From a virus (Duplodnaviria; Heunggongvirae; Uroviricota; Caudoviricetes), in the IMG/VR virus record IMGVR_UViG_2690316109_000015: a stretch of DNA of 20,709 bases; one strand, written 5' to 3'. A program made the position numbers and the translations under genes. Shown piece by piece: positions 3,418-19,706 of the stretch; the stretch's first letter is position 1; the number at the start of each line of letters is the position of its first letter. The notes under the pieces were generated by a model, which was not told the DNA's origin, did no database searches, and was given only the letters and a program-made list of their open reading frames with translations.

Positions 3418-5679
3418 ATGATCAAGTTATCTGACAAAGGCGTGTTTCTCGCCAGTAATAACGAAATAATTGCTGAAGAACATTTCACCGGCGAAATTAA
3501 AAAAGAAGAAGCCAAAAAAGGCACTATTGCCTGGTCTATTCTCTCTTCGCATAATACGTCCGGAAATATGGATAAACTTAAAATTAAGTTTGATTCATTA
3601 GCCTCTCACGATATTACCTTTGTTGGTATTGTACAGACCGCTAAAGCGTCCGGTATGGAACGTTTCCCGCTGCCGTATGTGCTGACCAACTGCCATAACT
3701 CACTCTGCGCCGTCGGCGGCACCATTAACGGTGATGACCATGTTTTTGGTTTATCGGCAGCTCAGCGTTATGGCGGTATTTTTGTGCCTCCGCATATTGC
3801 GGTCATCCATCAATATATGCGTGAGATGATGGCAGGCGGCGGCAAAATGATCCTCGGGTCAGACAGCCACACCCGTTACGGTGCATTAGGGACAATGGCA
3901 GTCGGTGAGGGCGGTGGTGAGTTGGTAAAACAGCTGCTTAATGACACCTGGGATATCGACTATCCGGGAGTTGTTGCGGTGCATCTGACCGGAAAACCAG
4001 CGCCGTATGTGGGGCCGCAGGATGTGGCGCTGGCTATCATTGGCGCGGTGTTCAAAAACGGTTACGTCAAAAACAAAGTCATGGAGTTCGTTGGACCGGG
4101 CGTTAGCGCGCTCTCTACCGATTTCCGTAACAGCGTTGACGTGATGACCACGGAAACCACCTGTTTAAGCTCCGTCTGGCAAACTGATGAAGAAGTGCAT
4201 AACTGGCTGGCGCTGCACGGTCGCGGCCAGGATTACTGCCAGCTTAACCCTCAACCGATGGCGTACTACGATGGCTGCATCAGCGTTGATTTAAGCGCCA
4301 TCAAACCAATGATTGCGCTGCCGTTCCACCCGAGCAACGTGTATGAAATCGACACACTGAACCAGAACCTGACCGACATTCTGCGTGAGATTGAAATTGA
4401 GTCCGAACGCGTGGCGCACGGTAAAGCCAAACTCTCGCTGCTGGATAAAGTGGAAAATGGTCGCCTGAAAGTGCAGCAGGGGATTATCGCGGGCTGTTCT
4501 GGCGGTAACTACGAAAACGTCATCGCGGCGGCGAATGCACTGCGCGGTCAATCCTGTGGCAATGACACCTTCTCGCTGGCAGTTTACCCGTCATCACAGC
4601 CGGTGTTTATGGATCTCGCCAAAAAAGGTGTGGTAGCAGATTTGATTGGCGCAGGCGCAATCATCAGAACCGCGTTCTGCGGCCCATGCTTTGGCGCGGG
4701 CGATACGCCAATCAACAACGGTTTGAGTATTCGCCACACCACGCGTAACTTCCCGAACCGCGAAGGCTCTAAGCCAGCTAATGGGCAGATGTCAGCGGTG
4801 GCGTTGATGGACGCTCGTTCTATCGCTGCGACTGCGGCAAACGGTGGCTATTTAACCTCTGCCAGCGAACTTGATTGCTGGGACAACGTGCCGGAGTACG
4901 CCTTCGATGTAACGCCGTATAAAAACCGTGTTTATCAGGGCTTTGTGAAAGGGGCAACTCAGCAACCGCTGATTTACGGACCGAACATTAAAGACTGGCC
5001 GGAATTGGGTGCGCTGACTGACAATATCGTCCTGAAAGTGTGCTCGAAGATCCTCGACGAAGTGACCACCACCGACGAACTGATTCCTTCCGGTGAAACC
5101 TCTTCTTATCGTTCAAATCCGATTGGTCTGGCGGAGTTTACCCTGTCACGCCGCGATCCCGGTTATGTTGGCAGAAGTAAAGCGACTGCTGAGCTGGAAA
5201 ATCAGCGTCTGGCGGGGAATGTCAGCGAGCTGACAGAGGTGTTTGCGCGCATTAAGCAGATTGCTGGTCAGGAGCATATTGATCCGCTGCAAACTGAAAT
5301 TGGCAGCATGGTATATGCGGTGAAACCAGGCGATGGTTCTGCGCGTGAACAGGCGGCGAGCTGCCAGCGTGTGATTGGCGGTCTGGCGAATATTGCCGAA
5401 GAGTACGCGACTAAACGCTACCGTTCTAACGTCATCAACTGGGGGATGTTACCGCTGCAGATGGCGGAAGTGCCAACCTTTGAAGTGGGGGATTACATTT
5501 ACATCCCTGGCATTAAAGCGGCGCTGGATAATCCGGGTACGACGTTTAAAGGTTATGTGATCCATGAAGATGCGCCGGTAACGGAAATTACGCTCTATAT
5601 GGAAAGTCTGACTGCTGAAGAGCGCGAGATTATCAAGGCGGGTAGTTTGATTAACTTCAATAAAAACCGTCAGATGTAA
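3418..5679 (+). CDS. ybhJ: Aconitase-family protein (putative hydratase/dehydratase), 753 aa from ATG at 3418
   Basis: Aconitase-type motifs [14 protein letters not shown] and [10 protein letters not shown] (Cys ligands); the track ORF begins at GTG 3394, but ATG 3418 has GGAG at 6-nt spacing and gives 753 aa. Confidence 0.8.
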
Positions 5680-5695: not shown

Positions 5696-5898
<203 letters not shown>

Positions 5899-5912
5899 AT
5901 AGTTAATTGCTC

Positions 5913-7196
5913 TTACTTCTTCGCCTCTGCAACCACTTTACTACCCACGCCGCGGTTATTGTATTCCCACATGCGGTTGTAGTTAGTGTCATTCAGATTG
6001 CGCTGTATTTCGTCGTTATCATCTACGCTGCCGGTATTACCCGCAAACGGACGATTAGAGATCACCGCATCGGCCCACGGTTTAGCCGTGTTAAAACCTT
6101 CGTTGATGGCGCTATCACGGATCACCACCTGACCGTTGGTATTGGCATCAACATCCAGCGAGCGGCCCAGTTGCGCCACGCCATCACCGGAAGCATTGAA
6201 ACGGCTGTTTACAGCGAGGAAACCGTAGTAAATGTTGGACAGCGTTGCCGGTGCAAACACATACGCTTCTTGCTGAGTACGTGAGTTCACCACGCGGAAT
6301 TCGGTGTTATCGAACACCACTGCGCCGCGACCAGAAACGATATCCACATCCCCTTCAATGTAGCTGTTGGTCACCAGCGTACGCGGCTGACGATTCGTTT
6401 CCAGACGGTTCTGCACACCGCTGTTGGTGACAAAGAAGGTGTTCTGACGACCGAGAATGTTCACGTTGTTAATCTGTACCTGGTCACCATCAGTACGCAG
6501 TGCCACCGCCGGATGGTTACCCGCATCTACGCTATCGCCCAGCGTGTTTTCGATGGTCAGGTTTTGCAGTTGCAGGCCATTGTTTTGTGACCAGAAGACC
6601 GCTGAACAGAGAACACCGATACTGTTGCTGCGTTTGCTCTGGCAGCTATCGTACATATACCACGCTGGTTTACCTGGCATATATTTGCCGCGCGGGTTGA
6701 CGTCGTGACGCCAGTCGGCAGGGCTCATGCCCCCATCAAGGGAAAGCCCAATCTTCACATCAATCGGTTTTTCACCTGTACCGTACAGAGTAATTCCACC
6801 CGGAGCGGCAGGAACATATACCGTTCCCTGATACTCACCTGGCATCACGGCAATATACTGGCGCTTGTTGGTACGCTTGATAATTGCCGCATCTACCGCC
6901 GCCTGAATCGTGGTATGCGTTACACCTTGAGTACCCGCCGGGCCGACAACAAAGTCAGGTTGCGCAGGCAGGGTAATCGGGGAAGGATTCCACGCTGCAG
7001 CACCTGGTGTCAGGGATGCAAAATAGTGTTGAGCATCGAAATTCTGCGCTTCTTTTGCCGACAGAATCGGGCGAGAAGAGGTACCAGGCGCGGTTTGATC
7101 AGAAGGACGTTGATCGGGTGGTGTTGAGCTACAGGCGGTCAGCGTCACGCCAAAAGCCAATGCCAGCGCCAGACGGGAAACTGAAAATGTGTTCAC
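5913..7196 (-). CDS. ybhC: Outer-membrane lipoprotein, pectinesterase-like / acyl-CoA thioesterase family (427 aa)
   Basis: GTG start with GGAG at 6 nt; signal peptide with lipobox LTAC|SS; gene immediately precedes the lambda attB position as in E. coli. Confidence 0.8.
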   Translation of the reverse strand: MNTFSVSRLALALAFGVTLTACSSTPPDQRPSDQTAPGTSSRPILSAKEAQNFDAQHYFASLTPGAAAWNPSPITLPAQPDFVVGPAGTQGVTHTTIQAAVDAAIIKRTNKRQYIAVMPGEYQGTVYVPAAPGGITLYGTGEKPIDVKIGLSLDGGMSPADWRHDVNPRGKYMPGKPAWYMYDSCQSKRSNSIGVLCSAVFWSQNNGLQLQNLTIENTLGDSVDAGNHPAVALRTDGDQVQINNVNILGRQNTFFVTNSGVQNRLETNRQPRTLVTNSYIEGDVDIVSGRGAVVFDNTEFRVVNSRTQQEAYVFAPATLSNIYYGFLAVNSRFNASGDGVAQLGRSLDVDANTNGQVVIRDSAINEGFNTAKPWADAVISNRPFAGNTGSVDDNDEIQRNLNDTNYNRMWEYNNRGVGSKVVAEAKK

Positions 7197-7229: not shown

Positions 7230-7330
7230 TCCGTTGAAGCCTGCTTTTTTATACTAAGTTGGCATTATAAAAAAGCATTGCTTATCAATTTGTTGCAACG
7301 AACAGGTCACTATCAGTCAAAATAAAATCA
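7230..7330. other. attL junction: host B arm, 15-bp lambda core (7243-7257) and P' arm with Int arm-type sites
   Basis: Exact core GCTTTTTTATACTAA at 7243-7257, followed by gttggcattataaaaaagcattgcttatcaatttgttgcaacgaacaggtcactatcagtcaaaataaaatcatt (lambda P' arm as I recall it); int starts right after. Confidence 0.9.
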
Positions 7331-8401
7331 TTATTTGATTTCAATTTTGTCCCACTCCCTGCCTCTGTCATCACGATACTGTGATGCCATGGTGTCCGAC
7401 TTATGCCCGAGAAGATGTTGAGCAAATTTATCGCTTATCTGCTTCTCATAGAGTCTTGCAGACAAACTGCGCAACTCGTGAAAGGTTGGCGGATCCCCTT
7501 CGAAGGAGAGACCTGATGCTTTTCGTGCGCGCATAAAATACCTTGATACTGTGCCGGATGAAAGCGGTTCACGACGAGTAGATGCAATTATGGTTTCTCC
7601 GCCAAGAATCTTTTTGCATTTATCAAGTGTTTCCTTCATTGATATCCCGAGAGCATCAACATGCAATGTTGTTGGGATGGCAATTTTTACGCCTGTTTTG
7701 CTTTGCTCGACATAAAGATATCCATCTACGATATCAGACCACTTCATTTCGCATAAATCACCAACTCGCTGCCCGGTAACAACAGCCAGTTCCATTGCAA
7801 GTCTGAGCCAACATGGTGATGATTCTGCTGCTTGATAAATTTTCAGGTATTCGTCAGCCGTAAGTCTTGATCTCCTTACCTCTGATTTTGCAGCGCGAGT
7901 GGCTGCGACCGGGTTTGTTGTTATATGGCCTTCAGCTATAGCCTCTCGGAATGCATCGCTCAGTGTTGATCTGATTAACTTGGCTGATGCCGCCTTGCCC
8001 TCGTCTATGTATCCATTGAGCATTGCCGCAATTTCTTTTGTGGTGATGTCTTCAAGTGGAGCATCAGGCAGACCCCTCCTTATTGCTTTAATTTTGCTCA
8101 TGTAATTTATGAGTGTCTTCTGCTTGATTCCTCTGCTGGCCAGGATTTTTTCGTAGCGATCAAGCCATGAATGTAACGTAACGGAATTATCACTGTTGAT
8201 TCTCGCTGTCAGAGGCTTGTGTTTGTGTCCTGAAAATAACTCAATGTTGGCCTGTATGGCTTCAGTGATTGCGATTCGCCTGTCTCTGCCTAATCCAAAC
8301 TCTTTACCCGTCCTTGGGTCCCTGTAGCAGTAATATCCATTGTTTCTTATATAAAGGTTAGGGGGTAAATCCCGGCGCTCATGACTTCGCCTTCTTCCCA
8401 T
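7331..8401 (-). CDS. int: Tyrosine integrase, lambda Int (356 aa)
   Basis: 356 aa; sequence recognised as essentially lambda Int (MGRRRSHERRDLPPNLYIRNNGYYCYRDPRTGKEF... HELRSLSARLYEKQ... LLGHKSD...); adjacent to attL. Confidence 0.95.
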   Translation of the reverse strand: MGRRRSHERRDLPPNLYIRNNGYYCYRDPRTGKEFGLGRDRRIAITEAIQANIELFSGHKHKPLTARINSDNSVTLHSWLDRYEKILASRGIKQKTLINYMSKIKAIRRGLPDAPLEDITTKEIAAMLNGYIDEGKAASAKLIRSTLSDAFREAIAEGHITTNPVAATRAAKSEVRRSRLTADEYLKIYQAAESSPCWLRLAMELAVVTGQRVGDLCEMKWSDIVDGYLYVEQSKTGVKIAIPTTLHVDALGISMKETLDKCKKILGGETIIASTRREPLSSGTVSRYFMRARKASGLSFEGDPPTFHELRSLSARLYEKQISDKFAQHLLGHKSDTMASQYRDDRGREWDKIEIK

Positions 8402-8597
8402 TTCTGATCCTCTTCAAAAGGCTACCTGTTACTGGTCGATTTAAGTCAACCTTTACCGCTGATTCGTGGAACAGATACTCTCTTCCATCCTTAACCGGAG
8501 GAGGGAATATCCTGCACTCGCGTACCCATCGACGAACTGTTTCAAGGCTTCTTGGGCGTCGCTGGCGTGCGTTCCACTCCTGAAGTGTCAAGTACAT
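8379..8597 (-). CDS. xis: Excisionase, lambda Xis (72 aa)
   Basis: 72 aa MYLTLQEWNARQRRPRSLETVRRWVRECRIFPPPVKDGREYLFHESAVKVDLNRP...; overlaps int start as in lambda. Confidence 0.95.
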   Translation of the reverse strand: MYLTLQEWNARQRRPRSLETVRRWVRECRIFPPPVKDGREYLFHESAVKVDLNRPVTGSLLKRIRNGKKAKS

Positions 8598-8621
8598 CGC
8601 AAAGTCTCCGCAATTACACGC

Positions 8622-8644
8622 AAGAAAAAACCGCCATCAGGCGG
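8622..8644 (-). terminator. Putative rho-independent terminator-like hairpin upstream of xis
   Basis: Minus strand reads CCGCC-tgat-GGCGG followed by TTTTTTCTT; the stop codon of the 55-aa ORF lies inside the stem. Confidence 0.35.
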
Positions 8645-8804
8645 CTTGGTGTTCTTTCAGTTCTTCAATTCGAATATTGGTTACGTCTGCATGTGCTATC
8701 TGCGCCCACAGCATCCAGTGGTCATAGCAGTCGCTGATGTTCTCGGCTTCGATAACTCTGTTGAATGGTTCTCCATTCCATTCACCTGTGACTCGGAAGT
8801 GCAT
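8637..8804 (-). CDS. Small hypothetical protein (55 aa) of the lambda b region, immediately upstream of xis
   Basis: ATG at 8804 with GGAG at 7-nt spacing; translates to MHFRVTGEWNGEPFNRVIEAENISDCYDHWMLWAQIAHADVTNIRIEELKEHQAA; below the 61-aa track cutoff, found by manual translation. Confidence 0.5.
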   Translation of the reverse strand: MHFRVTGEWNGEPFNRVIEAENISDCYDHWMLWAQIAHADVTNIRIEELKEHQAA

Positions 8805-9118
8805 TTATCATCTCCATAAAACAAAACCCGCCGTAGCGAGTTCAGATAAAAGAAATCCTCGTCAGTGCGAGGATGCTGTTCATTGCTGCTATACACTTTT
8901 TTGCTCTCAACGTAAGCGGTAGCCCATTCTGTTGGGTTGGTGCAGTTGCTTTTAGGAAATGCTATTTACCCCTTAAATTTCGGCTGAAAGAGCTAAAATC
9001 CATGCAAAAAATTTACGCAATTTTGTGTATTATTGTGCAGTAAGTAATGAGCTATTTTCTGCGCAAAAAATGGATGGTAAATTTGTCCGGGTCAGGAAAA
9101 ATTTTATGGGCGCTAAAC

Positions 9119-9649
9119 ATGAAAAAAGATTCGTATCCTTATTTGATTTGCATGACAGTTTCAGGGCTGATCTTTATTTTCCTTTTCTTCTGGTGGCGGG
9201 CAGATATCTACAGGGTCACGTTTCTTAATCAGAGTATATCCCACTATTACATTCTGTTTAGCATGGGAATAGCTTTTCTGTTATCTCTGTTTTGGGTTAA
9301 GAAGGGGATAGTAAAACAAAGAGGCTGGAAGAGTCTGTCAGCATACCTTAAGGTTTATGCAGGGATGTGCATATTTGCTGGATTTTTTCTGATTATACCC
9401 CTTACGACACTAACTTATTTTTTGCCTGGAGAGACATCGTCTTATGTTGCACCGTATCGGTATACTTCCGGTAGTTCAAAAAGTTGTTCTGGAGCTGAGG
9501 TGGATGACCCCGATCTACATGAGAATATTCGCATTTGCTATCCGTATGGCAATTATGAGTACGATAATATTATCTATGTTGAAAAGAAAATTAATATATT
9601 AGGTGCGGTAGTGACATATGCACAGACCGCGCGTGATGATACTGAATGA
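9119..9649 (+). CDS. Small integral membrane protein (about 176 aa from MKK start; 200 aa if started at ATG 9047), moron-like cargo in b region
   Basis: Three hydrophobic helices (YPYLICMTVSGLIFIFLFFWW; ISHYYILFSMGIAFLLSLFWV; LKVYAGMCIFAGFFLIIPLTTLTYFL) plus a Cys-containing soluble C-terminal tail; AT-rich; opposite orientation to the flanking leftward operon; no strong SD for any candidate start. Confidence 0.5.
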   Translation: MKKDSYPYLICMTVSGLIFIFLFFWWRADIYRVTFLNQSISHYYILFSMGIAFLLSLFWVKKGIVKQRGWKSLSAYLKVYAGMCIFAGFFLIIPLTTLTYFLPGETSSYVAPYRYTSGSSKSCSGAEVDDPDLHENIRICYPYGNYEYDNIIYVEKKINILGAVVTYAQTARDDTE

Positions 9650-9683
9650 TATAGTATATAGCGGGCAAGTTTTAGTTAATTTA

Positions 9684-9721
9684 TCGAGGTAATATAATTT
9701 ACCTCGACTCGTTTGTTCTGG
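9684..9721 (+). terminator. Hairpin (9-bp perfect stem, 6-nt loop) downstream of the membrane-protein ORF
   Basis: tcgaggtaa-tataat-ttacctcga at 9684-9707 followed by ctcgtttgttctgg; lies 35 nt after the stop at 9647-9649. Confidence 0.4.
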
Positions 9722-9859
9722 TATTAATATTTCGCTTTACGACCGATTTTTATCTGATGATATCATGCGGTTTTCATATACTGACTTACTGTCTTTTCTC
9801 CGTTAGCGATTTTCTCCTGCTCAGCGATGATTTTATCTTTGGCTTCTAGTTAATTTCGC

Positions 9860-10081
9860 TCACTTCGAACCTCTCTGTTTACTGATAAGCTCCAGCTCCT
9901 CCTGGCAACTTGCACAAGTCCGACAACCCTGAACGACCAGGCGTCTTCGTTCATCTATCGGATCGCCACACTCACAACAATGAGTGGCAGATATAGCCTG
10001 GTGGTTCAGGCGGCGCATTTTTATTGCTGTGTTGCGCTGTAATTCTTCAATTTCTGATGCTGAATCAATGATGTCTGCCAT
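9860..10081 (-). CDS. TraR/DksA-family C4 zinc-finger protein (73 aa), lambda Orf73-like
   Basis: Cys pairs CCECGDPI ... CRTCASC typical of TraR/DksA C4 zinc fingers; position between b region and orf61/63/60a as in lambda. Confidence 0.75.
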   Translation of the reverse strand: MADIIDSASEIEELQRNTAIKMRRLNHQAISATHCCECGDPIDERRRLVVQGCRTCASCQEELELISKQRGSK

Positions 10082-10179
10082 CTTCCATTAATCCCTGAAT
10101 TGTTGGTTAATACGCTTGAGGGTGAATGCGAATAATAAAAAAGGAGCCTGTAGCTCCCTGATGATTTTGCTTTTCATGT

Positions 10180-10491
10180 TCATCGTTCCTTAAAGACGCC
10201 GTTTAACATGCCGATTGCCAGGCTTAAATGAGTCGGTGTGAATCCCATCAGCGTTACCGTTTCGCGGTGCTTCTTCAGTACGCTACGGCAAATGTCATCG
10301 ACGTTTTTATCCGGAAACTGCTGTCTGGCTTTTTTGATTTCAGAATTAGCCTGACGGGCAATGCTGCGAAGGGCGTTTTCCTGCTGAGGTGTCATTGAAC
10401 AAGTCCCATGTCGGCAAGCATAAGCACACAGAATATGAAGCCCGCTGCCAGAAAAATGCATTCCGTGGTTGTCATACCTGGTCTCTCTCAT
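10180..10491 (-). CDS. Hypothetical protein, lambda orf61-region (start uncertain; alternative ATG at 10395 gives 71 aa)
   Basis: ORF with ATG at 10489-10491; C-terminal part MTPQQENALRSIARQANSEIKKARQQFPDKNVDD... looks protein-like, N-terminal part less so. Confidence 0.4.
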   Translation of the reverse strand: MRETRYDNHGMHFSGSGLHILCAYACRHGTCSMTPQQENALRSIARQANSEIKKARQQFPDKNVDDICRSVLKKHRETVTLMGFTPTHLSLAIGMLNGVFKER

Positions 10492-10663
10492 CTGCTTCTG
10501 CTTTCGCCACCATCATTTCCAGCTTTTGTGAAAGGGATGCGGCTAACGTATGAAATTCTTCGTCTGTTTCTACTGGTATTGGCACAAACCTGACTCCAAT
10601 TTGAGCGAGGCTATGTGCCATCTCGATACTCGTTCTTAACTCAACGGGAGATGCTTTGTGCAT
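10472..10663 (-). CDS. Hypothetical protein, lambda orf63-like (63 aa)
   Basis: ATG at 10661-10663; sits in the conserved position upstream of exo in the leftward operon. Confidence 0.55.
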   Translation of the reverse strand: MHKASPVELRTSIEMAHSLAQIGVRFVPIPVETDEEFHTLAASLSQKLEMMVAKAEADERDQV

Positions 10664-10818
10664 ACAGCTCCCCGTTTATTATTTATCTCCTCAGCCAGCC
10701 GCTGTGCTTTCAGGGGATTTCGGATAACAGAAAGGCCGGGAAATACCCAGCCTCGCTTCGTAACGGAGTAGACGAAAGTGATCGTGCCTACGCGGATATT
10801 ATCGTGAGGATGTTTCAT
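10636..10818 (-). CDS. Hypothetical protein, lambda orf60a-like (60 aa from second ATG)
   Basis: ATG at 10816-10818 has GGGGAG at 8-nt spacing; the first ATG (10824) has SD too close; overlaps the exo stop. Confidence 0.5.
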
Positions 10819-11495
10819 CGCCATTGCTCCCCAAATACAAAACCAATTTCAGCCAGTGCCTCGTCCATTTTTTCGATGAACTCCGGCACCATCTCGTCAA
10901 AACTCGCTATATACTTTTCATTCCGCTCAATCACGACATAATGCAGGCCTTCACGCTTCATGCGCGGGTCATAGTTGGCAAAGTACCAGGCATCTTTTCG
11001 CGTCACCCACATGCTGTACTGCACCTGGGCCATGTAAGCCGATTTTATTGCCTCGAAACCACCGAGCCGGAATTTCATGAAATCCCGGGAGGTAAACGGG
11101 CATTTCAGTTCAAGGCCGTTGCCGTCACTGCATAAACCATCGGGAGAGCAGGCGGTGCGCATATTTTCGTCGCGATAGATGATCGGGGATTCAGTAATAT
11201 TCACGCCGGAAGTGAATTCAAACAGGGTTCTGGCGTCGTTCTCGTACTGTTTTCCCCAGGCCAGCGCCTTAGCATTAACTTCCGGAGCCACACCGGTGCA
11301 AACCTCAGCCAGCAGGGTGTGGAAGTAGGACATTTTCATGTCAGGCCACTTCTTTCCTGAGCGGGGCTTTGCTATCACGTTGTGAACTTCTGAAGCGGTG
11401 ATGACGCCGAGCCGTAATTTGTGCCATGCATCATCCCCCTGTTCGACAGCTCTCACGTCGATCCCGGTACGCTGCAGGATAATGTCCGGTGTCAT
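10815..11495 (-). CDS. exo: Lambda Red exonuclease Exo (226 aa)
   Basis: 226 aa, [62 protein letters not shown]...; recognised as lambda Exo; start overlaps the bet stop. Confidence 0.95.
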
Positions 11496-12277
11496 GCTGC
11501 CACCTTCTGCTCAGTGGCTTTCTGTTTCAGGAATCCAAGAGCTTTCACTGCTTCGGCCTGTGTCAGTTCTGACGATGCGCGAATGTCGCGGCGAAATATC
11601 TGGGAACAGAGCGGCAATAAGTCGTCATCCCATGTTTTATCCAGGGCGATCAGCAGAGTGTTAATCTCCTGCATGGTTTCATCGTTAACCGGAGTGATGT
11701 CGCGTTCCGGCTGACGTTCTGCAGTGTATGCGGTATTTTCGACAATGCGCTCGGCTTCATCCTTGTCATAGATACCAGCAAATCCGAAGGCGAGACGGGC
11801 ACACTGAATCATGGCTTTATGCCGTAACATCCGTTTGGGATGCGACTGCCACGGCCCCGTGATTTCTCTGCCTTCGCGAGTTTTGAATGGTTCGCGGCGG
11901 CATTCATCCATCCATTCGGTAACGCAGATCGGATGATTACGGTCCTTGCGGTAAATCCGGCATGTACAGGATTCATTGTCCTGCTCAAAGTCCATGCCAT
12001 CAAACTGCTGGTTTTCATTGATGATGCGGGACCAGCCATCAACGCCCACCACCGGAACGATGCCGTTCTGCTTATCAGGGAAGGCGTAAATTTCTTTCGT
12101 CCACGGATTAAGGCCGTACTGGTTGGCGACGATCAACAATGCGATGAACTGCGCATCGCTGGCATCACCTTTAAATGCCGTCTGGCGAAGAGTGGTGATC
12201 AGTTCCTGTGGGTCGACAGAATCCATGCCGACACGTTCAGCCAGCTTCCCAGCCAGCGTTGCGAGTGCTGTACTCAT
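11492..12277 (-). CDS. bet: Lambda Red single-strand annealing protein Beta (261 aa)
   Basis: 261 aa, [66 protein letters not shown]...; recognised as lambda Bet. Confidence 0.95.
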
Positions 12278-12282
12278 CCGTT

Positions 12283-12579
12283 TTATACCTCTGAATCAAT
12301 ATCAACCTGGTGGTGAGCAATGGTTTCAACCATGTACCGGATGTGTTCTGCCATGCGCTCCTGAAACTCAACATCGTCATCAAACGCACGGGTAATGGCT
12401 TTTTTGCTGGCCCCGTGGCGTTGCAAATGATCGATGCATAGCGATTCAAACAGGTGCTGGGGCAGACCTTTTTCCATGTCGTCTGCCAGTTCTGCCTCTT
12501 TCTCTTCACGGGCGATCTGCTGGTAGTGACGCGCCCAGCTCTGAGCCTCAAGACGATCCTGAATGTAATAAGCGTTCAT
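12283..12579 (-). CDS. gam: Lambda Gam, RecBCD inhibitor, short (GamS-type, 98 aa) form
   Basis: [60 protein letters not shown]...; AGGAG 6 nt upstream of ATG at 12579. Confidence 0.9.
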
Positions 12580-13362: not shown

Positions 13363-14169
13363 CTACTGTAACATAGAGGCAGCATTCAGCATCTTTTCGT
13401 AATATGAACGCATGTCTTCTTTGCTATATGCGTTGATAAGATTATCAGCGTGTTTTTCCAGTAGATTTAGCTGCTGTTTTGCTGACTTTTCTTGTGCTGT
13501 CGTTTCAGCGGCAAAAATTACAAATGAATCAATATTTGAATTGTATAATTCGTAGGCTTTAGTAATTGTTAAAACACTTATCGCAGCTTCACCCATTTGT
13601 TTTTTTATATTTTCAGAACGAAAATCTAATGTTTCTGTAAGATGGTATTTGCCATTTTTTAACAAAAAATCTGCAACTAACCCTTCTTCATTACTAATTG
13701 GATAATTAGCTACGATTTTATGTTGGGAAAGATCTTCAAAATACTTACTGAAAATTCCATGTTGTATAAAGGTGGATTTTAATTCAGAAAAAACCTTTTT
13801 TTTCAACTGTTTATGTGGCTGTTTTTGTGGGTTTACTAACCGATTCATTAGATCAGTAACTTTAGCTTCGTAATCTTCGTTGGCTTGAAGAGTGAACATG
13901 CCAAATGACGATAACGATAATGCTCCCTTAAAAAGACAAGGAAGAAGTTCAGCATTGTTGATTTTTTGTGACAAATCAAAAAGCGAGGTCGAAAGATCCT
14001 CTAAGTAATCTAAGGTAAGATCTTTGTCAATCGCTTTAAGTTTTGAAACTGAATTGAGCATACGTACGTCTATGTCAGAGTCATGGTAAACGATCAAACC
14101 AACGTTAATCGTTTCACCTTTCTCTAAGTTCGGTGTAACTCTGATTAAGCTGTATTTGAAAGTTTTCAA
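13363..14169 (-). CDS. Hypothetical protein (268 aa), second gene of the rex-position cargo operon; no recognisable catalytic motif
   Basis: TTG start whose first two bases overlap the upstream TGA stop (TCTTGAAAA), GGAG 8 nt upstream; AT-rich; N-terminus MKTFKYSLIRVTPNLEKGETINVGLIVYHDSD; C-terminal third predicted helical. Confidence 0.7.
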   Translation of the reverse strand: MKTFKYSLIRVTPNLEKGETINVGLIVYHDSDIDVRMLNSVSKLKAIDKDLTLDYLEDLSTSLFDLSQKINNAELLPCLFKGALSLSSFGMFTLQANEDYEAKVTDLMNRLVNPQKQPHKQLKKKVFSELKSTFIQHGIFSKYFEDLSQHKIVANYPISNEEGLVADFLLKNGKYHLTETLDFRSENIKKQMGEAAISVLTITKAYELYNSNIDSFVIFAAETTAQEKSAKQQLNLLEKHADNLINAYSKEDMRSYYEKMLNAASMLQ

Positions 14170-15014
14170 GATGTTATCTCCAGTCTTATGGCATTTAGCC
14201 TATCGATTCGCTCCTCGCTGTCCCACCACTTCAAAAAATACTCCTTATGCATTGGTGGCATCCATGCTTCAGGCATAGAGTTAAGTATATCAGATATAGC
14301 CTCAACTCCAATTTTTTCAATTTTGTCAAGGACAGATAATGCGCACTTTCTCAGATCATCAGTGTCGCCAATGAATTGTTTAGCAATCGTCCAGTTTGTT
14401 GTTGTACTGGAGTCTGTTGGTAGTATATGAGGGGTATTTCGTGGCCAGCCTATAACAAAAGAGCTTAGACTAAAATCGAATGTTTTAACTATAACATTGC
14501 CTCGGGTGTTTTCCATGTATAAGTAGTTGTTGAGGTGTCTGTCAATGTTATATACAAACTGATCAAATGCATAAATTGCCCAGAGTTGCTTCTTTAAGGA
14601 TTCAGAAGCATTTGAGAGCAAATTTATCCATTGAGGACTATTGAGACCAGATTTCCAGGCTGAAAACTCTATGCGAGAGCCAAAAACATACTCCCCATTA
14701 GCAATACACTTGAGAATTTTGCACACAGGTGTAGCGATGCCGCATTTTTCAGCTAAATTTGTGCAAAACCATTCCGCTGCCGGTACTTGAGTTGGGTTTT
14801 GTACAGGAAAAGGTGGGGTGGAGCGCATGCTTTTAACTGCATATTCCATTTCATCAGTGGCAATAGCGAAACCAGAAAGGTGTGCTGTGCCTAAGCTTGA
14901 AGGTGTATATTCATGAAATTCTAATTCAAACAAACTTCCTTGCTCTGGTTTCACTTCATCAGTGTTTGACTCTTGTTCTTTCGTCATCAACTTTTTTCCC
15001 CAAATCGAAGACAT
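14166..15014 (-). CDS. Kinase-like protein (282 aa) with HipA/PI3K-type catalytic-loop signature; first gene of the rex-position cargo operon
   Basis: ATG at 15014 with AGAGG at 5-nt spacing, 46 nt downstream of the cI-like stop; motif NIDRHLNN (D-R-H-x-x-N) followed about 20 residues later by KTFDFS (DFG-like); AT-rich. Confidence 0.7.
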   Translation of the reverse strand: MSSIWGKKLMTKEQESNTDEVKPEQGSLFELEFHEYTPSSLGTAHLSGFAIATDEMEYAVKSMRSTPPFPVQNPTQVPAAEWFCTNLAEKCGIATPVCKILKCIANGEYVFGSRIEFSAWKSGLNSPQWINLLSNASESLKKQLWAIYAFDQFVYNIDRHLNNYLYMENTRGNVIVKTFDFSLSSFVIGWPRNTPHILPTDSSTTTNWTIAKQFIGDTDDLRKCALSVLDKIEKIGVEAISDILNSMPEAWMPPMHKEYFLKWWDSEERIDRLNAIRLEITS

Positions 15015-15060: not shown

Positions 15061-15753
15061 CTACCCATGCTTCCTATACGTCTGCGGCATGCTCCCAATA
15101 ACCTTACCGAAGATGAACACCCGGTTCATCTCGTCTTTCTCGATCGGGTCCCACGGTGAGTAGCTCTTGTTATCAGAGATAACCAGCAGCTTATCCTTCA
15201 TCATTTGCAGACGCTTTACATGGGCTGTGTCGTCGTACAGAAACGCATAGATACCATCACCGTCGAAAGATTTAACCGTGATATCAACGAACAGCAGATC
15301 ACCTGGTTCGATCGTTCCTGACATGCTGTCACCACGCACGTTAATGATGCGGATATTTTCCGCCTTCCTGCCATCGAACATGTGACGAGCATCGTCAAAC
15401 GAGTACTCAACCGAGCGTAGAACTTCTACAAACTCACGGTTGATTACACCCGGCCCGGCACTGACTTCTATATCAAGAACGTCAATTTTGAAGTATTTGG
15501 AATGGCTGACAGCAGGCTTCCCTGATTGTTGACCGTCATTTCTCATCGGGCCTATGCCTGATGAGAGCCATTCTGTTCGAACACCCAATGCATTAGCTAT
15601 TTCAACAATTTTTGTTGAGCCGCGCGCGTTGCCGCTTGTCAGTCTCCAGATTGTGGGTTGAGCTACGCCAGACGCCTTTGCAAGAGCGCCTTGAGACATT
15701 CCAGATTGTTCCATCGCTAGGTTTAAGCGATCAGCAAGAGTTTCTTTTTTCAT
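15061..15753 (-). CDS. CI-like prophage repressor: N-terminal XRE-type HTH, C-terminal S24 (LexA-like) autopeptidase; about 230 aa from ATG 15753
   Basis: HTH MSQGALAKASGVAQPTIWRL; S24 catalytic Ser in VRGDSMSGTIEPGDLLFVD and Lys in AHVKRL; candidate Ala-Gly cleavage site (SAGPG). The track ORF starts at TTG 15789; ATG 15753 has no SD and abuts the -10 element, suggesting a leaderless transcript as for lambda cI from pRM. Not lambda cI. Confidence 0.85.
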   Translation of the reverse strand: MKKETLADRLNLAMEQSGMSQGALAKASGVAQPTIWRLTSGNARGSTKIVEIANALGVRTEWLSSGIGPMRNDGQQSGKPAVSHSKYFKIDVLDIEVSAGPGVINREFVEVLRSVEYSFDDARHMFDGRKAENIRIINVRGDSMSGTIEPGDLLFVDITVKSFDGDGIYAFLYDDTAHVKRLQMMKDKLLVISDNKSYSPWDPIEKDEMNRVFIFGKVIGSMPQTYRKHG

Positions 15754-15863
15754 AAGTTTTAATTTATACGCTTGCGTATTGATGGTCAAAACACGTTTTG
15801 CTATTGCTTGGATTAATACGCATTGCTATTATTCATTCATTGCAATACCAATAGGAATTGATA
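15754..15863. promoter_or_regulatory. Immunity switch region: divergent pRM-like and pR-like promoters with operator dyads (oR)
   Basis: Minus strand: -35 TTGACC (plus 15784-15789), then TATAAA/TAAATT ending about 7 nt before the cI-like ATG. Plus strand: -35 TTGCTT (15804-15809), 17-bp spacer, -10 TATTAT (15827-15832). Dyads: ATACGCTTGCGTAT (15766-15779) and AATACGCATTGCTATT (15815-15830). Confidence 0.55.
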
Positions 15864-18953: not shown

Positions 18954-19706
18954 ATGGATCCTAAATTACTGTATGCCACGTTTAAACGAAATGACGCACC
19001 AGCTTGGCGCTGCCCGAACTGTATGAATGAAACACTGGAGATTGTCGCTGATAGTTTTGTAGAAACTGATTCAAGCGCAACAACTCAGTTTAGAGATGAA
19101 GTATGGTTTGATGAGGAAATGTCGGGAGGAGTATTCAGTTGCGTGCTGCGCTGTACCCGCCAAGCCTGCCAGGAGAAGGTTGCTTTGTCTGGGCAGGTTG
19201 TTGCTGTAGAATGCTTCAATGACGAAATGACGGAGCGTTGGTATGTTTCTGGTTTCCGTCCTAAGTATTTCTATCCACCACTTCCTCTATTCCTGTTTCC
19301 TGAAAAGTGCCCTGAAGATATAGCTGATCTCTTGGCGGAAGTATCAGCTCTGATCCCCTCGCACCCAGCTTCAGCGGTGAACACCATGAGAACCATACTG
19401 GAGATGATGCTTGATAGTCTTGATGTACCAAGAGAGAAAACAGTTAAAGGCAAGATAATACGTCTTTCTACGCATGAAAGAATCACATATTATTCAGATA
19501 AACTGGGACCAAATAAAGATGCATTCATGGCGTTAAAGTGGTTGGGGAATCACGGCAGTCATGGAGGGATTAAAGTCACAAGGTCCTCTATTAATGATGC
19601 CTGCATTCTCATTGGTCATTTGATTGACTTCTTATTCTTAGAAAGCCCGGATGTAACTATTCATATTGAACGGATAAACAACGTGTATGCACCCAAAAAG
19701 GAGTAA
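18954..19706 (+). CDS. Hypothetical protein (250 aa): N-terminal Cys4 zinc-ribbon-like region plus C-terminal HEPN/DUF4145-like segment with non-canonical motif
   Basis: GGAG at 8-nt spacing; Cys pairs WRCPNC ... CVLRCTRQAC; C-terminal LKWLGNHGSHGG aligns with the RNNLFHG motif of the downstream 160-aa protein but lacks the Arg; lower GC than flanks by eye. Confidence 0.65.
   Translation: MDPKLLYATFKRNDAPAWRCPNCMNETLEIVADSFVETDSSATTQFRDEVWFDEEMSGGVFSCVLRCTRQACQEKVALSGQVVAVECFNDEMTERWYVSGFRPKYFYPPLPLFLFPEKCPEDIADLLAEVSALIPSHPASAVNTMRTILEMMLDSLDVPREKTVKGKIIRLSTHERITYYSDKLGPNKDAFMALKWLGNHGSHGGIKVTRSSINDACILIGHLIDFLFLESPDVTIHIERINNVYAPKKE

Follow-up and report, generated by a model that had tools for sequence, protein, structure and literature searches.

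We identified, in a 20,709-nucleotide stretch of viral DNA (IMG/VR record IMGVR_UViG_2690316109_000015, Caudoviricetes; the whole stretch is called the window here), a segment of 973 bp at positions 8875-9847 that takes the place of lambda genes ea8.5 and most of ea22 in a lambda/434-type prophage. The segment carries one gene for a small protein predicted to span the inner membrane and to expose a folded domain to the periplasm. We consider it very probable that the segment is a self-contained accessory cassette, a moron in the sense of Hendrix, shared between lambdoid and P2-like phages. A function of its product in superinfection exclusion, exerted at the envelope, is possible but on the doubtful side. 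The complete account, joining the cassette anatomy to exclusion, is the best explanation we can offer, and we would give it somewhat less than an even chance.

The limits of the substitution were set by blastn comparison with lambda. Window positions 7243-8874 correspond to lambda 27724-29355 at 98% identity and positions 9848-12398 to lambda 30380-32931 at 97.8%, and the segment between them displaces lambda 29356-30379 (1024 bp; ea8.5 and most of ea22). A preliminary description of this DNA, made from the letters alone, had placed foreign AT-rich DNA at 8880-9850, with lambda-like sequence running from attL to orf55 before it and resuming just ahead of a TraR-like gene; the alignments bear out this layout and move the ends to 8875 and 9847. 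GC content is 0.36-0.40 over 8850-9900 versus 0.45-0.53 in the flanks, and 0.39 in the membrane-protein gene itself. As had been noticed earlier, the segment has a single long open reading frame (ORF), on the plus strand at 9047-9649, which opposes the surrounding leftward operon: it is antisense to int, xis, orf55, the TraR-like gene, exo and bet, all of which are on the minus strand. The features of the segment are as follows.

8875-9847, no strand assigned: AT-rich segment of 973 bp, non-homologous to lambda (blastn against lambda; composition)
8982-9739, plus strand: core of the putative mobile cassette, comprising upstream region, gene and hairpin region (blastn of the window against P2-type locus L017; RefSeq annotation of P2-type locus L039)
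9013-9039, plus strand: three direct repeats with a 10-bp period, TTACGCA (9013), TTGTGTA (9023) and TTGTGCA (9033), at -106 to -80 from the ATG; counterparts in relatives at 5895-5921 (L004-L006), 5895-5911 (L017) and 4532-4548 (L039)
9054-9071, plus strand: imperfect palindrome ATTTTCTGCGCAAAAAAT, kept in lambda-type and P2-type contexts
9075-9083, plus strand: TGgTAAATT, an extended -10-like element (TGaTAAATT in Salmonella), from the alignment of homolog loci
9119-9649, plus strand: corrected coding sequence of 176 amino acids (homolog alignment, upstream stops, substitution rates)
9684-9692/9699-9707, plus strand: perfect 9-bp stem with a 6-nt loop, then CTCGTTTGTT; terminator-like, with a weak T run
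9740-9859, minus strand: ead/Ea22-like gene remnant reading (V)SEIN-stop, then ...LEAKDKIIAEQEKIANGEKTVSQYMKTA-stop in another frame (tblastn; comparison with the P2-type locus)

The preliminary description had assigned the segment to the lambda b region, a label that has to be given up. The b region occupies the DNA from the tail-fibre genes to attP, beyond att and at the opposite end of the prophage from int-xis; positions 8875-9847 fall outside it. They are found between xis/orf55 and the TraR-like gene/exo, in what the Wegrzyn and Donaldson groups have studied as the exo-xis region (PMC7093339, PMC4195576). Searching the segment with lambda Ea22 and Ea8.5 by tblastn returned only fragments with E values of at least 0.05, all within the minus-strand remnant.

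The gene itself is shorter than the 200 amino acids first proposed. Twenty homologs at 42-78% identity share the start MKK(D/Y)SYP, which corresponds to the ATG at 9119, and in all nine homolog loci examined an in-frame stop lies 3-12 codons upstream of the matching ATG. The protein is therefore 176 residues long, with its true start at 9119. Published starts differ, with RefSeq using the ATG at 9047 (200 aa) and the phage 434 annotation (CPT) the TTG at 9083, and both annotations appear from the alignment to over-extend the gene. Taken with phrog_1416, a PHROGs family that models only the last 88 residues, these differing starts indicate that public gene calls are inconsistent for this family; the short model of phrog_1416 is probably a legacy of truncated calls.

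The ratio of nonsynonymous to synonymous substitution rates (dN/dS, Nei-Gojobori) is 0.09-0.17 against E. coli P2-type and Salmonella homologs and is lowest in the C-terminal domain (0.07-0.10). Such values, around 0.1, together with homologs down to 33% identity, invariant cysteines and motifs and a confident structural model (see below), indicate a real gene. A chance ORF in AT-rich junk left by illegitimate recombination, to which one might be led by the lack of a database family, the poor Shine-Dalgarno sequence at 9119 and the three start codons chosen by different annotations and analyses, is effectively refuted by these observations.

Modelled with the family alignment, AlphaFold2 (AF2) gives a predicted local distance difference test score (pLDDT) of 86.9, and the model has helices at residues 5-29, 38-61 and 70-101, a short strand of three residues (34-36) and five more strands in the stretch 105-171. 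When the C-terminal 77 residues were modelled by themselves, the score rose to 90.5. The three hydrophobic helices reported earlier are thus recovered by hydropathy and AF2 alike. What had been called a Cys-containing C-terminal tail does hold the cysteines, two of them invariant, but is predicted to be a folded domain of ~70 residues with five beta strands rather than a tail. Lysine and arginine are concentrated in the loop after helix 2 (62-69) and where helix 3 begins; the C-terminal domain carries a net negative charge. By the positive-inside rule this charge distribution assigns the N-terminus and loop 62-69 to the cytoplasm, and the barrel, together with loop 30-37, to the periplasm. The predicted protein accordingly has its N-terminus inside, three transmembrane helices and a periplasmic C-terminal beta-barrel of five strands. 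C123 and C140, invariant in a 21-sequence alignment, both lie inside the predicted barrel (102-171), and the barrel is probably locked by a C123-C140 disulfide. Loop 30-37, periplasmic in the predicted topology, is conserved with the motif IYRxTFLN. Column identity is 0.82 in this loop and 0.74 in the barrel, versus 0.47-0.61 in the helices, and this peak of conservation on the predicted periplasmic parts points to a functional surface facing the periplasm.

Fold comparisons gave no informative match. A hidden Markov model (HMM) profile search of PDB sequences gave E values no better than 0.49 and Foldseek against BFVD no match at E ≤ 0.001. DUF1093 and small OB- or cold-shock-like beta-barrels (PDB 3npp, 2k5q, 2ytv) are listed among the closest known systems. 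NfeD-like proteins also combine transmembrane helices with a C-terminal OB-fold, a resemblance that we take to be architectural only; none of 21 family members matches Pfam NfeD, and no SPFH neighbour was found in the contexts examined.

The DNA around the gene suggests that it brings its own control elements. TTGTG-N5-TTGTGCA occurs once in the window, against 0.03 matches expected, and the repeats lie 80-96 nt upstream of the start codon in lambda-type and P2-type prophages alike. In the 434 record, positions 9023-9036 bear the label of a consensus 'CII binding site'. Since P2-like phages have kept the repeats too, we take them to be a control element that belongs to the cassette itself and not a site specific to lambda; the array at 9013-9039 may be bound by a regulator. 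Within the upstream block, the palindrome at 9054-9071, also given as TTTTCTGCGCAAAAAA, is a possible operator that would overlap the -35 position of a putative cassette promoter, of which the TGnTAAATT element would be the -10. The start codon chosen by RefSeq (9047) is upstream of this element. Repeats, palindrome and -10-like element are all conserved in the P2-type loci of E. coli and in the closest ones of Salmonella. The 5' leader (9045-9125) does not fold significantly (z = 0.2). On the other side of the gene, the 9-bp perfect hairpin that had been described there is present as stated, and the 76 nt around it (9650-9725) fold with -17.6 kcal/mol (z = -2.6), beating 197 of 200 shuffles. 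An Rfam scan of 8500-10200 returned no RNA family.

A 56-aa ORF at 8873-9043, entered in 434 as a 'putative membrane protein', falls for the most part outside the shared cassette and lacks conservation; we judged it spurious.

Comparison of the segment with P2-like prophages of E. coli showed that these share the core at 76% DNA identity together with a further 44-bp match at 9806-9849. The shared block consists of the gene with ~137 bp upstream and ~90 bp downstream, and with 9806-9849 it amounts to nearly the whole substitution. The closest proteins outside 434 come from E. coli (78% identity), Salmonella (71% and 59%) and Klebsiella (55%), and all are encoded in P2-like prophages. There, the homologs (L004-L006, L017-L023 and L039) lie in the interval from portal gene Q to replication gene A, in the same orientation as Q and convergent with A; the window copy itself is in a lambdoid phage. 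The gpQ-gpA locus is an experimentally validated anti-phage hotspot that holds old and tin (Rousset et al., 2022; PMC9122126). The E. coli P2-type protein WP_000711113 is found ten times in the hotspot table of that study as 'hypothetical', beside StbA and Plasmid_stab_B (PMC9122126), and our literature search found no record of its having been tested. The P2-type allele is present in ~77 further E. coli genomes.

The right side of the P2-type cassette abuts a frameshifted ead/Ea22-like pseudogene (L039 5271-5641), where the window has the short remnant at 9740-9859. This junction, common to both contexts, indicates block transfer between the phage types, and Ea22-like genes may have served as the source of homology for exchange between lambdoid and P2-like phages. 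The sharing supports a mobile and self-regulated cargo cassette. Of the moron-like layout proposed in the preliminary description, the autonomous, opposite-strand unit of foreign cargo is therefore upheld by the sharing with P2-like prophages and by purifying selection; a promoter of its own is putative, a consensus scan having returned none while the conserved extended -10-like element and the upstream repeats suggest one. The role in superinfection exclusion or abortive infection that the description suggested is still an inference.

In Klebsiella, the homolog in the P2-like hotspot (L021-L023 2281-5623, minus strand) is accompanied by genes for a 790-aa AAA_16-domain protein and a 279-aa protein, possibly an uncharacterised defence pair. 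No PADLOC model matched these two proteins or the other neighbours in the P2 hotspots.

The cassette has long been present in a classic phage. Positions 8800-9900 match phage 434 (OL657226 27013-28113) at 98.5%, mEp332 at 99.7% and 2B8 at 98.6%, and these three are the only carriers in the GenBank phage set. The gene is CPT_434_36 in 434, annotated 'putative membrane protein', and the older record M60848 stops inside it as 'ORF-22+'. CPT_434_36 and the RefSeq proteins WP_000120064 and WP_000120056 of E. coli 55989, O104:H4 and O157:H7 CP-933K represent the same gene, with 98.5-99.8% DNA identity and the same position between orf55 and the TraR-like gene. The announcement of the 434 genome mentions morons unlike those of lambda and nothing more (PMC9119081). 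Among 5426 complete E. coli genomes, 915 (~17%) carry the gene, always on the chromosome and always as a 'hypothetical protein'; carriers include 55989, O104:H4, E24377A and O157:H7 EDL933 (prophage CP-933K at ybhC).

Beyond these copies the family is small. A profile search of 1.84 billion cluster representatives found only 61 proteins at E ≤ 0.001. Homologs are 169-180 aa long with identities down to 33%, complete members being mostly ~170 aa with the same architecture and shorter matches looking like fragments. To judge from these searches, it is an orphan family confined to the Enterobacterales. Pfam, NCBIfam and PADLOC scans with the 200-aa and 176-aa versions and with 21 family members gave nothing above noise. 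A 3074-aa protein from the deep HMM search was dropped (marginal E of 6e-6; its Pfam matches were all sub-threshold repeats). A 100% identical copy of the gene occurs on a 3.5-kb contig (L027, JARKOR010000073.1) of a 'Candidatus Nanosynbacter' metagenome-assembled genome, a bin that was almost certainly contaminated here with E. coli or prophage DNA.

Set against known systems, the segment is closest to the morons described by Juhala and Hendrix, such as HK97 gp15 and lambda bor and lom. Like them, it is DNA that differs from relatives between syntenic genes, with deviant composition, a terminator-like hairpin of its own (with a weak T run) and patchy presence in relatives, and it is likewise common to unrelated phages along with its flanks. 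It differs from them in replacing accessory genes rather than being cleanly inserted between two adjacent genes, and in having a promoter that is only putative. Its homologs at 55-78% identity occupy the same gpQ-gpA locus as old, tin and the systems of Rousset et al. (2022), yet show no similarity to Old, Tin or PADLOC models, and the window copy is lambdoid. The protein resembles P22 SieA, T4 Imm and Sp and HK97 gp15 as a small, prophage-encoded, single-gene inner-membrane protein with a predicted periplasmic domain; it has no sequence relationship to them and is distinguished by three transmembrane helices with a predicted disulfide-containing barrel and by chromosomal homologs outside phages. 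With ea8.5 and ea22 it shares the slot between orf55/xis and the TraR-like gene, and an Ea22-like remnant flanks the cassette; in contrast to those genes it lies on the opposite strand, has no homology to them and encodes a membrane protein rather than a soluble cytoplasmic one.

These observations lead us to the following hypothesis. The cassette at 8875-9847, with its upstream control region and downstream hairpin, would have moved as a unit between lambdoid and P2-like phages and landed in the variable cargo loci of both, here in the exo-xis region. Its gene would be expressed in the lysogen independently of the leftward early operon, and the protein would act at the periplasmic face of the inner membrane. 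The lysogen would be protected because genome entry of competing phages is blocked, in the manner of T4 Imm and Sp, HK97 gp15 and P22 SieA, with the barrel and the loop binding either an incoming phage component or a host entry factor. We favour an envelope role in inter-phage competition because the gene is carried in the cargo hotspots of two unrelated temperate phage lineages, stands alone and encodes a protein with a conserved, predicted periplasmic face. A broader version, in which the protein founds a new family of single-gene, periplasm-acting blockers of phage entry, hidden until now in phage 434, exchanged as promoter-gene-terminator cassettes and domesticated in Enterobacter and relatives, we regard as rather unlikely. 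In that version a disulfide-locked barrel, anchored by the three helices, would intercept either a component of the incoming phage or an entry factor in the host inner membrane.

Several results weigh against exclusion. Family members with 33-55% identity stand as single genes outside phage loci: the arrangement LysR, gene, HAMP-GGDEF is conserved in seven Enterobacter species, and further non-phage copies occur in Cedecea, Pseudescherichia, Citrobacter, Klebsiella sp. R390, Serratia and on Pantoea megaplasmids. One would not usually expect fixed chromosomal copies of a gene devoted to phage defence. Some cargo of the P2 hotspot is not defensive (ParM/StbA partition genes, Ea22-like genes). 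No defence component in PADLOC-DB 2.0 matched at E ≤ 1, and hhalign found P22 SieA unrelated (probability 0.2%, E 0.31). The profile search that had been suggested as a check on the gene found only phrog_1416 in PHROGs, a family of no known function that covers the C-terminal 88 aa, and no family annotated for exclusion (Imm, Sp, SieA, SieB, Cor and the like); Pfam, NCBIfam and PADLOC added none. A scan with the sigma-70 consensus gave no promoter upstream of the gene, and a literature search by accession, phage name and topic retrieved no functional study, no expression or phenotype data and no paper in which the protein accessions are mentioned. Because of the chromosomal homologs, an anti-phage role is not assured, and a general envelope function fits equally; given also the vertically conserved Enterobacter orthologs, and that the protein resembles no known exclusion or defence protein, we rate a general role in the envelope or in fitness almost as likely as exclusion.

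In this alternative the protein would be a factor of the host envelope or physiology (membrane homeostasis, stress tolerance or niche fitness) captured from an Enterobacterales chromosome as lysogenic-conversion cargo, for which lambda bor and lom provide a parallel. The stand-alone genes at fixed non-prophage loci, both the Enterobacter arrangement and the copies in the six other genera just named, speak for it, as do the strong purifying selection seen everywhere and the lack of any match to a defence model. However, the closest copies (55-100% identity) are all phage-borne and lie in loci enriched for inter-phage competition genes (PMC9122126), and no conserved partner or operon hints at a pathway. 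We hold this alternative, too, to be possible rather than probable. The position of the segment raises a different idea, that it modulates the phage life cycle as ea8.5, ea22, orf60a, orf61 and orf63 do, biasing lysis versus lysogeny under CII-like activation. The slot is exactly that of ea8.5 and ea22, whose products influence lysogeny (PMC7093339, PMC4195576), and the TTGT-N6-TTGT repeats at 9023-9036 carry the CII-consensus label in the 434 record. Against this, the repeats read TTGT and not the TTGC of characterised CII sites, and they are equally conserved in P2-like prophages; to our knowledge, P2-like phages do not have lambda CII. As the gene also runs against the early operon, shares no homology with Ea8.5 or Ea22 and has homologs on chromosomes outside phages, we find a modulator of this type improbable.

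Two further readings involve toxins or the killing of cells. Its small, multi-pass inner-membrane architecture with a predicted periplasmic, disulfide-containing domain resembles colicin-type immunity proteins, and a scattered, single-gene distribution in the Enterobacterales would fit an orphan immunity protein against an envelope-targeting toxin, whether a bacteriocin that forms pores or acts in the periplasm or an effector of contact-dependent inhibition (CDI) or of a type VI secretion system (T6SS). We give this little credence, as no toxin gene adjoins it in any context examined and neither sequence nor significant fold similarity connects it to known immunity proteins. Alternatively, it could be an abortive-infection effector that disrupts the membrane and kills the infected cell: transmembrane proteins are frequent as suicide effectors in defence systems (PMC9122126), and a YafO-type toxin gene adjoins the homolog in one Salmonella P2-like locus. 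Yet the gene stands alone and no sensor partner is conserved with it, conservation of the protein is concentrated on the predicted periplasmic face and not in the helices, and the gene is stably maintained both in 17% of E. coli genomes and on the Enterobacter chromosome, which leaves this reading very improbable. Exclusion at the envelope, with the reservations given above, remains the function we prefer.

Two of the distant chromosomal homologs lie beside genes for sugar transporters of the phosphotransferase system (PTS). The Serratia marcescens homolog is immediately downstream of ptsG (L025 3333-5510) and that of Klebsiella sp. R390 is divergent from a bgl-type PTS EIIBCA gene (L009 3882-6543). 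Some lambdoid phages are reported to depend on PTS permeases for the entry of their DNA, PtsG in the case of HK97. For lambda the permease is ManYZ, through which DicB blocks this phage (PMC6832061). No such neighbour occurs in Enterobacter, Cedecea, Pseudescherichia, Citrobacter or Pantoea, and we treated the association as chance.

That the locus encodes a hypothetical membrane protein is already recorded in the annotation of phage 434. New here are the corrected gene model, by which both the RefSeq and the 434 models are amended, the predicted topology and fold, the tiny orphan family, and the sharing of the cassette between lambdoid and P2-like phages with distant relatives on chromosomes. 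The gene resides in a founding model phage and in about one-sixth of the E. coli genomes sequenced, among them the outbreak lineages O157:H7 and O104:H4. If it does exclude phages, it would add a new mechanism at the membrane level and account for some of the resistance that prophages confer on pathogenic E. coli; if not, the orthologs on Enterobacter chromosomes suggest an envelope function instead. It is a good and cheap experimental target, and will come as no surprise to the specialist.

The prophage that hosts the cassette is of the lambda/434 type and is integrated at att-lambda, beside ybhC. The window opens with the E. coli chromosomal genes ybhH, ybhI, ybhJ and ybhC, which match strain MS 145-7 among others, and at ybhC it passes through attL into the lambdoid prophage. 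The genes and terminator-like elements that flank the segment are the following.

7331-8401, minus strand: int
8379-8597, minus strand: xis
8637-8804, minus strand: left flank, homolog of lambda orf55 (phrog_676; ORF list, PHROGs, comparison with lambda)
8824-8874, minus strand: two tandem terminator-like hairpins (8874-8855 and 8843-8824) at the left junction of the substitution (z = -3.8)
9860-10081, minus strand: right flank, TraR/DksA-type zinc-finger gene at the resumption of lambda homology (blastn against lambda)
10815-11495, minus strand: exo
11492-12277, minus strand: bet

The hairpin at 8855-8874 is terminator tL4 in M60848, the 1990s record of phage 434. Between xis and orf55, the prophage is without a 437-bp segment that carries ORF114 in 434 (window 8625-8630 versus 434 L001 2389-2826). 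Being lambda-like at this point and 434-like at the substitution, it is a mosaic of the two.

Elsewhere in the window, a gene pair at 13363-15014 on the minus strand, directly downstream of a cI-like S24 repressor (15061-15789), encodes a HipA-like kinase (14166-15014; PF20613, E 1e-6) and a DUF3037 protein (13363-14169; E 1.6e-9). This is the position where lambda has rexAB. The pair has weak PADLOC matches to the candidate systems PDC-M66A/B and PDC-M03A, and is likely a defence or toxin pair expressed in the lysogen. A gene for a DUF4145 protein follows the replication genes on the plus strand (18954-19706), in the position of the nin region, and DUF4145 is present too among the P2-hotspot cargo in the table of Rousset et al. 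(2022).

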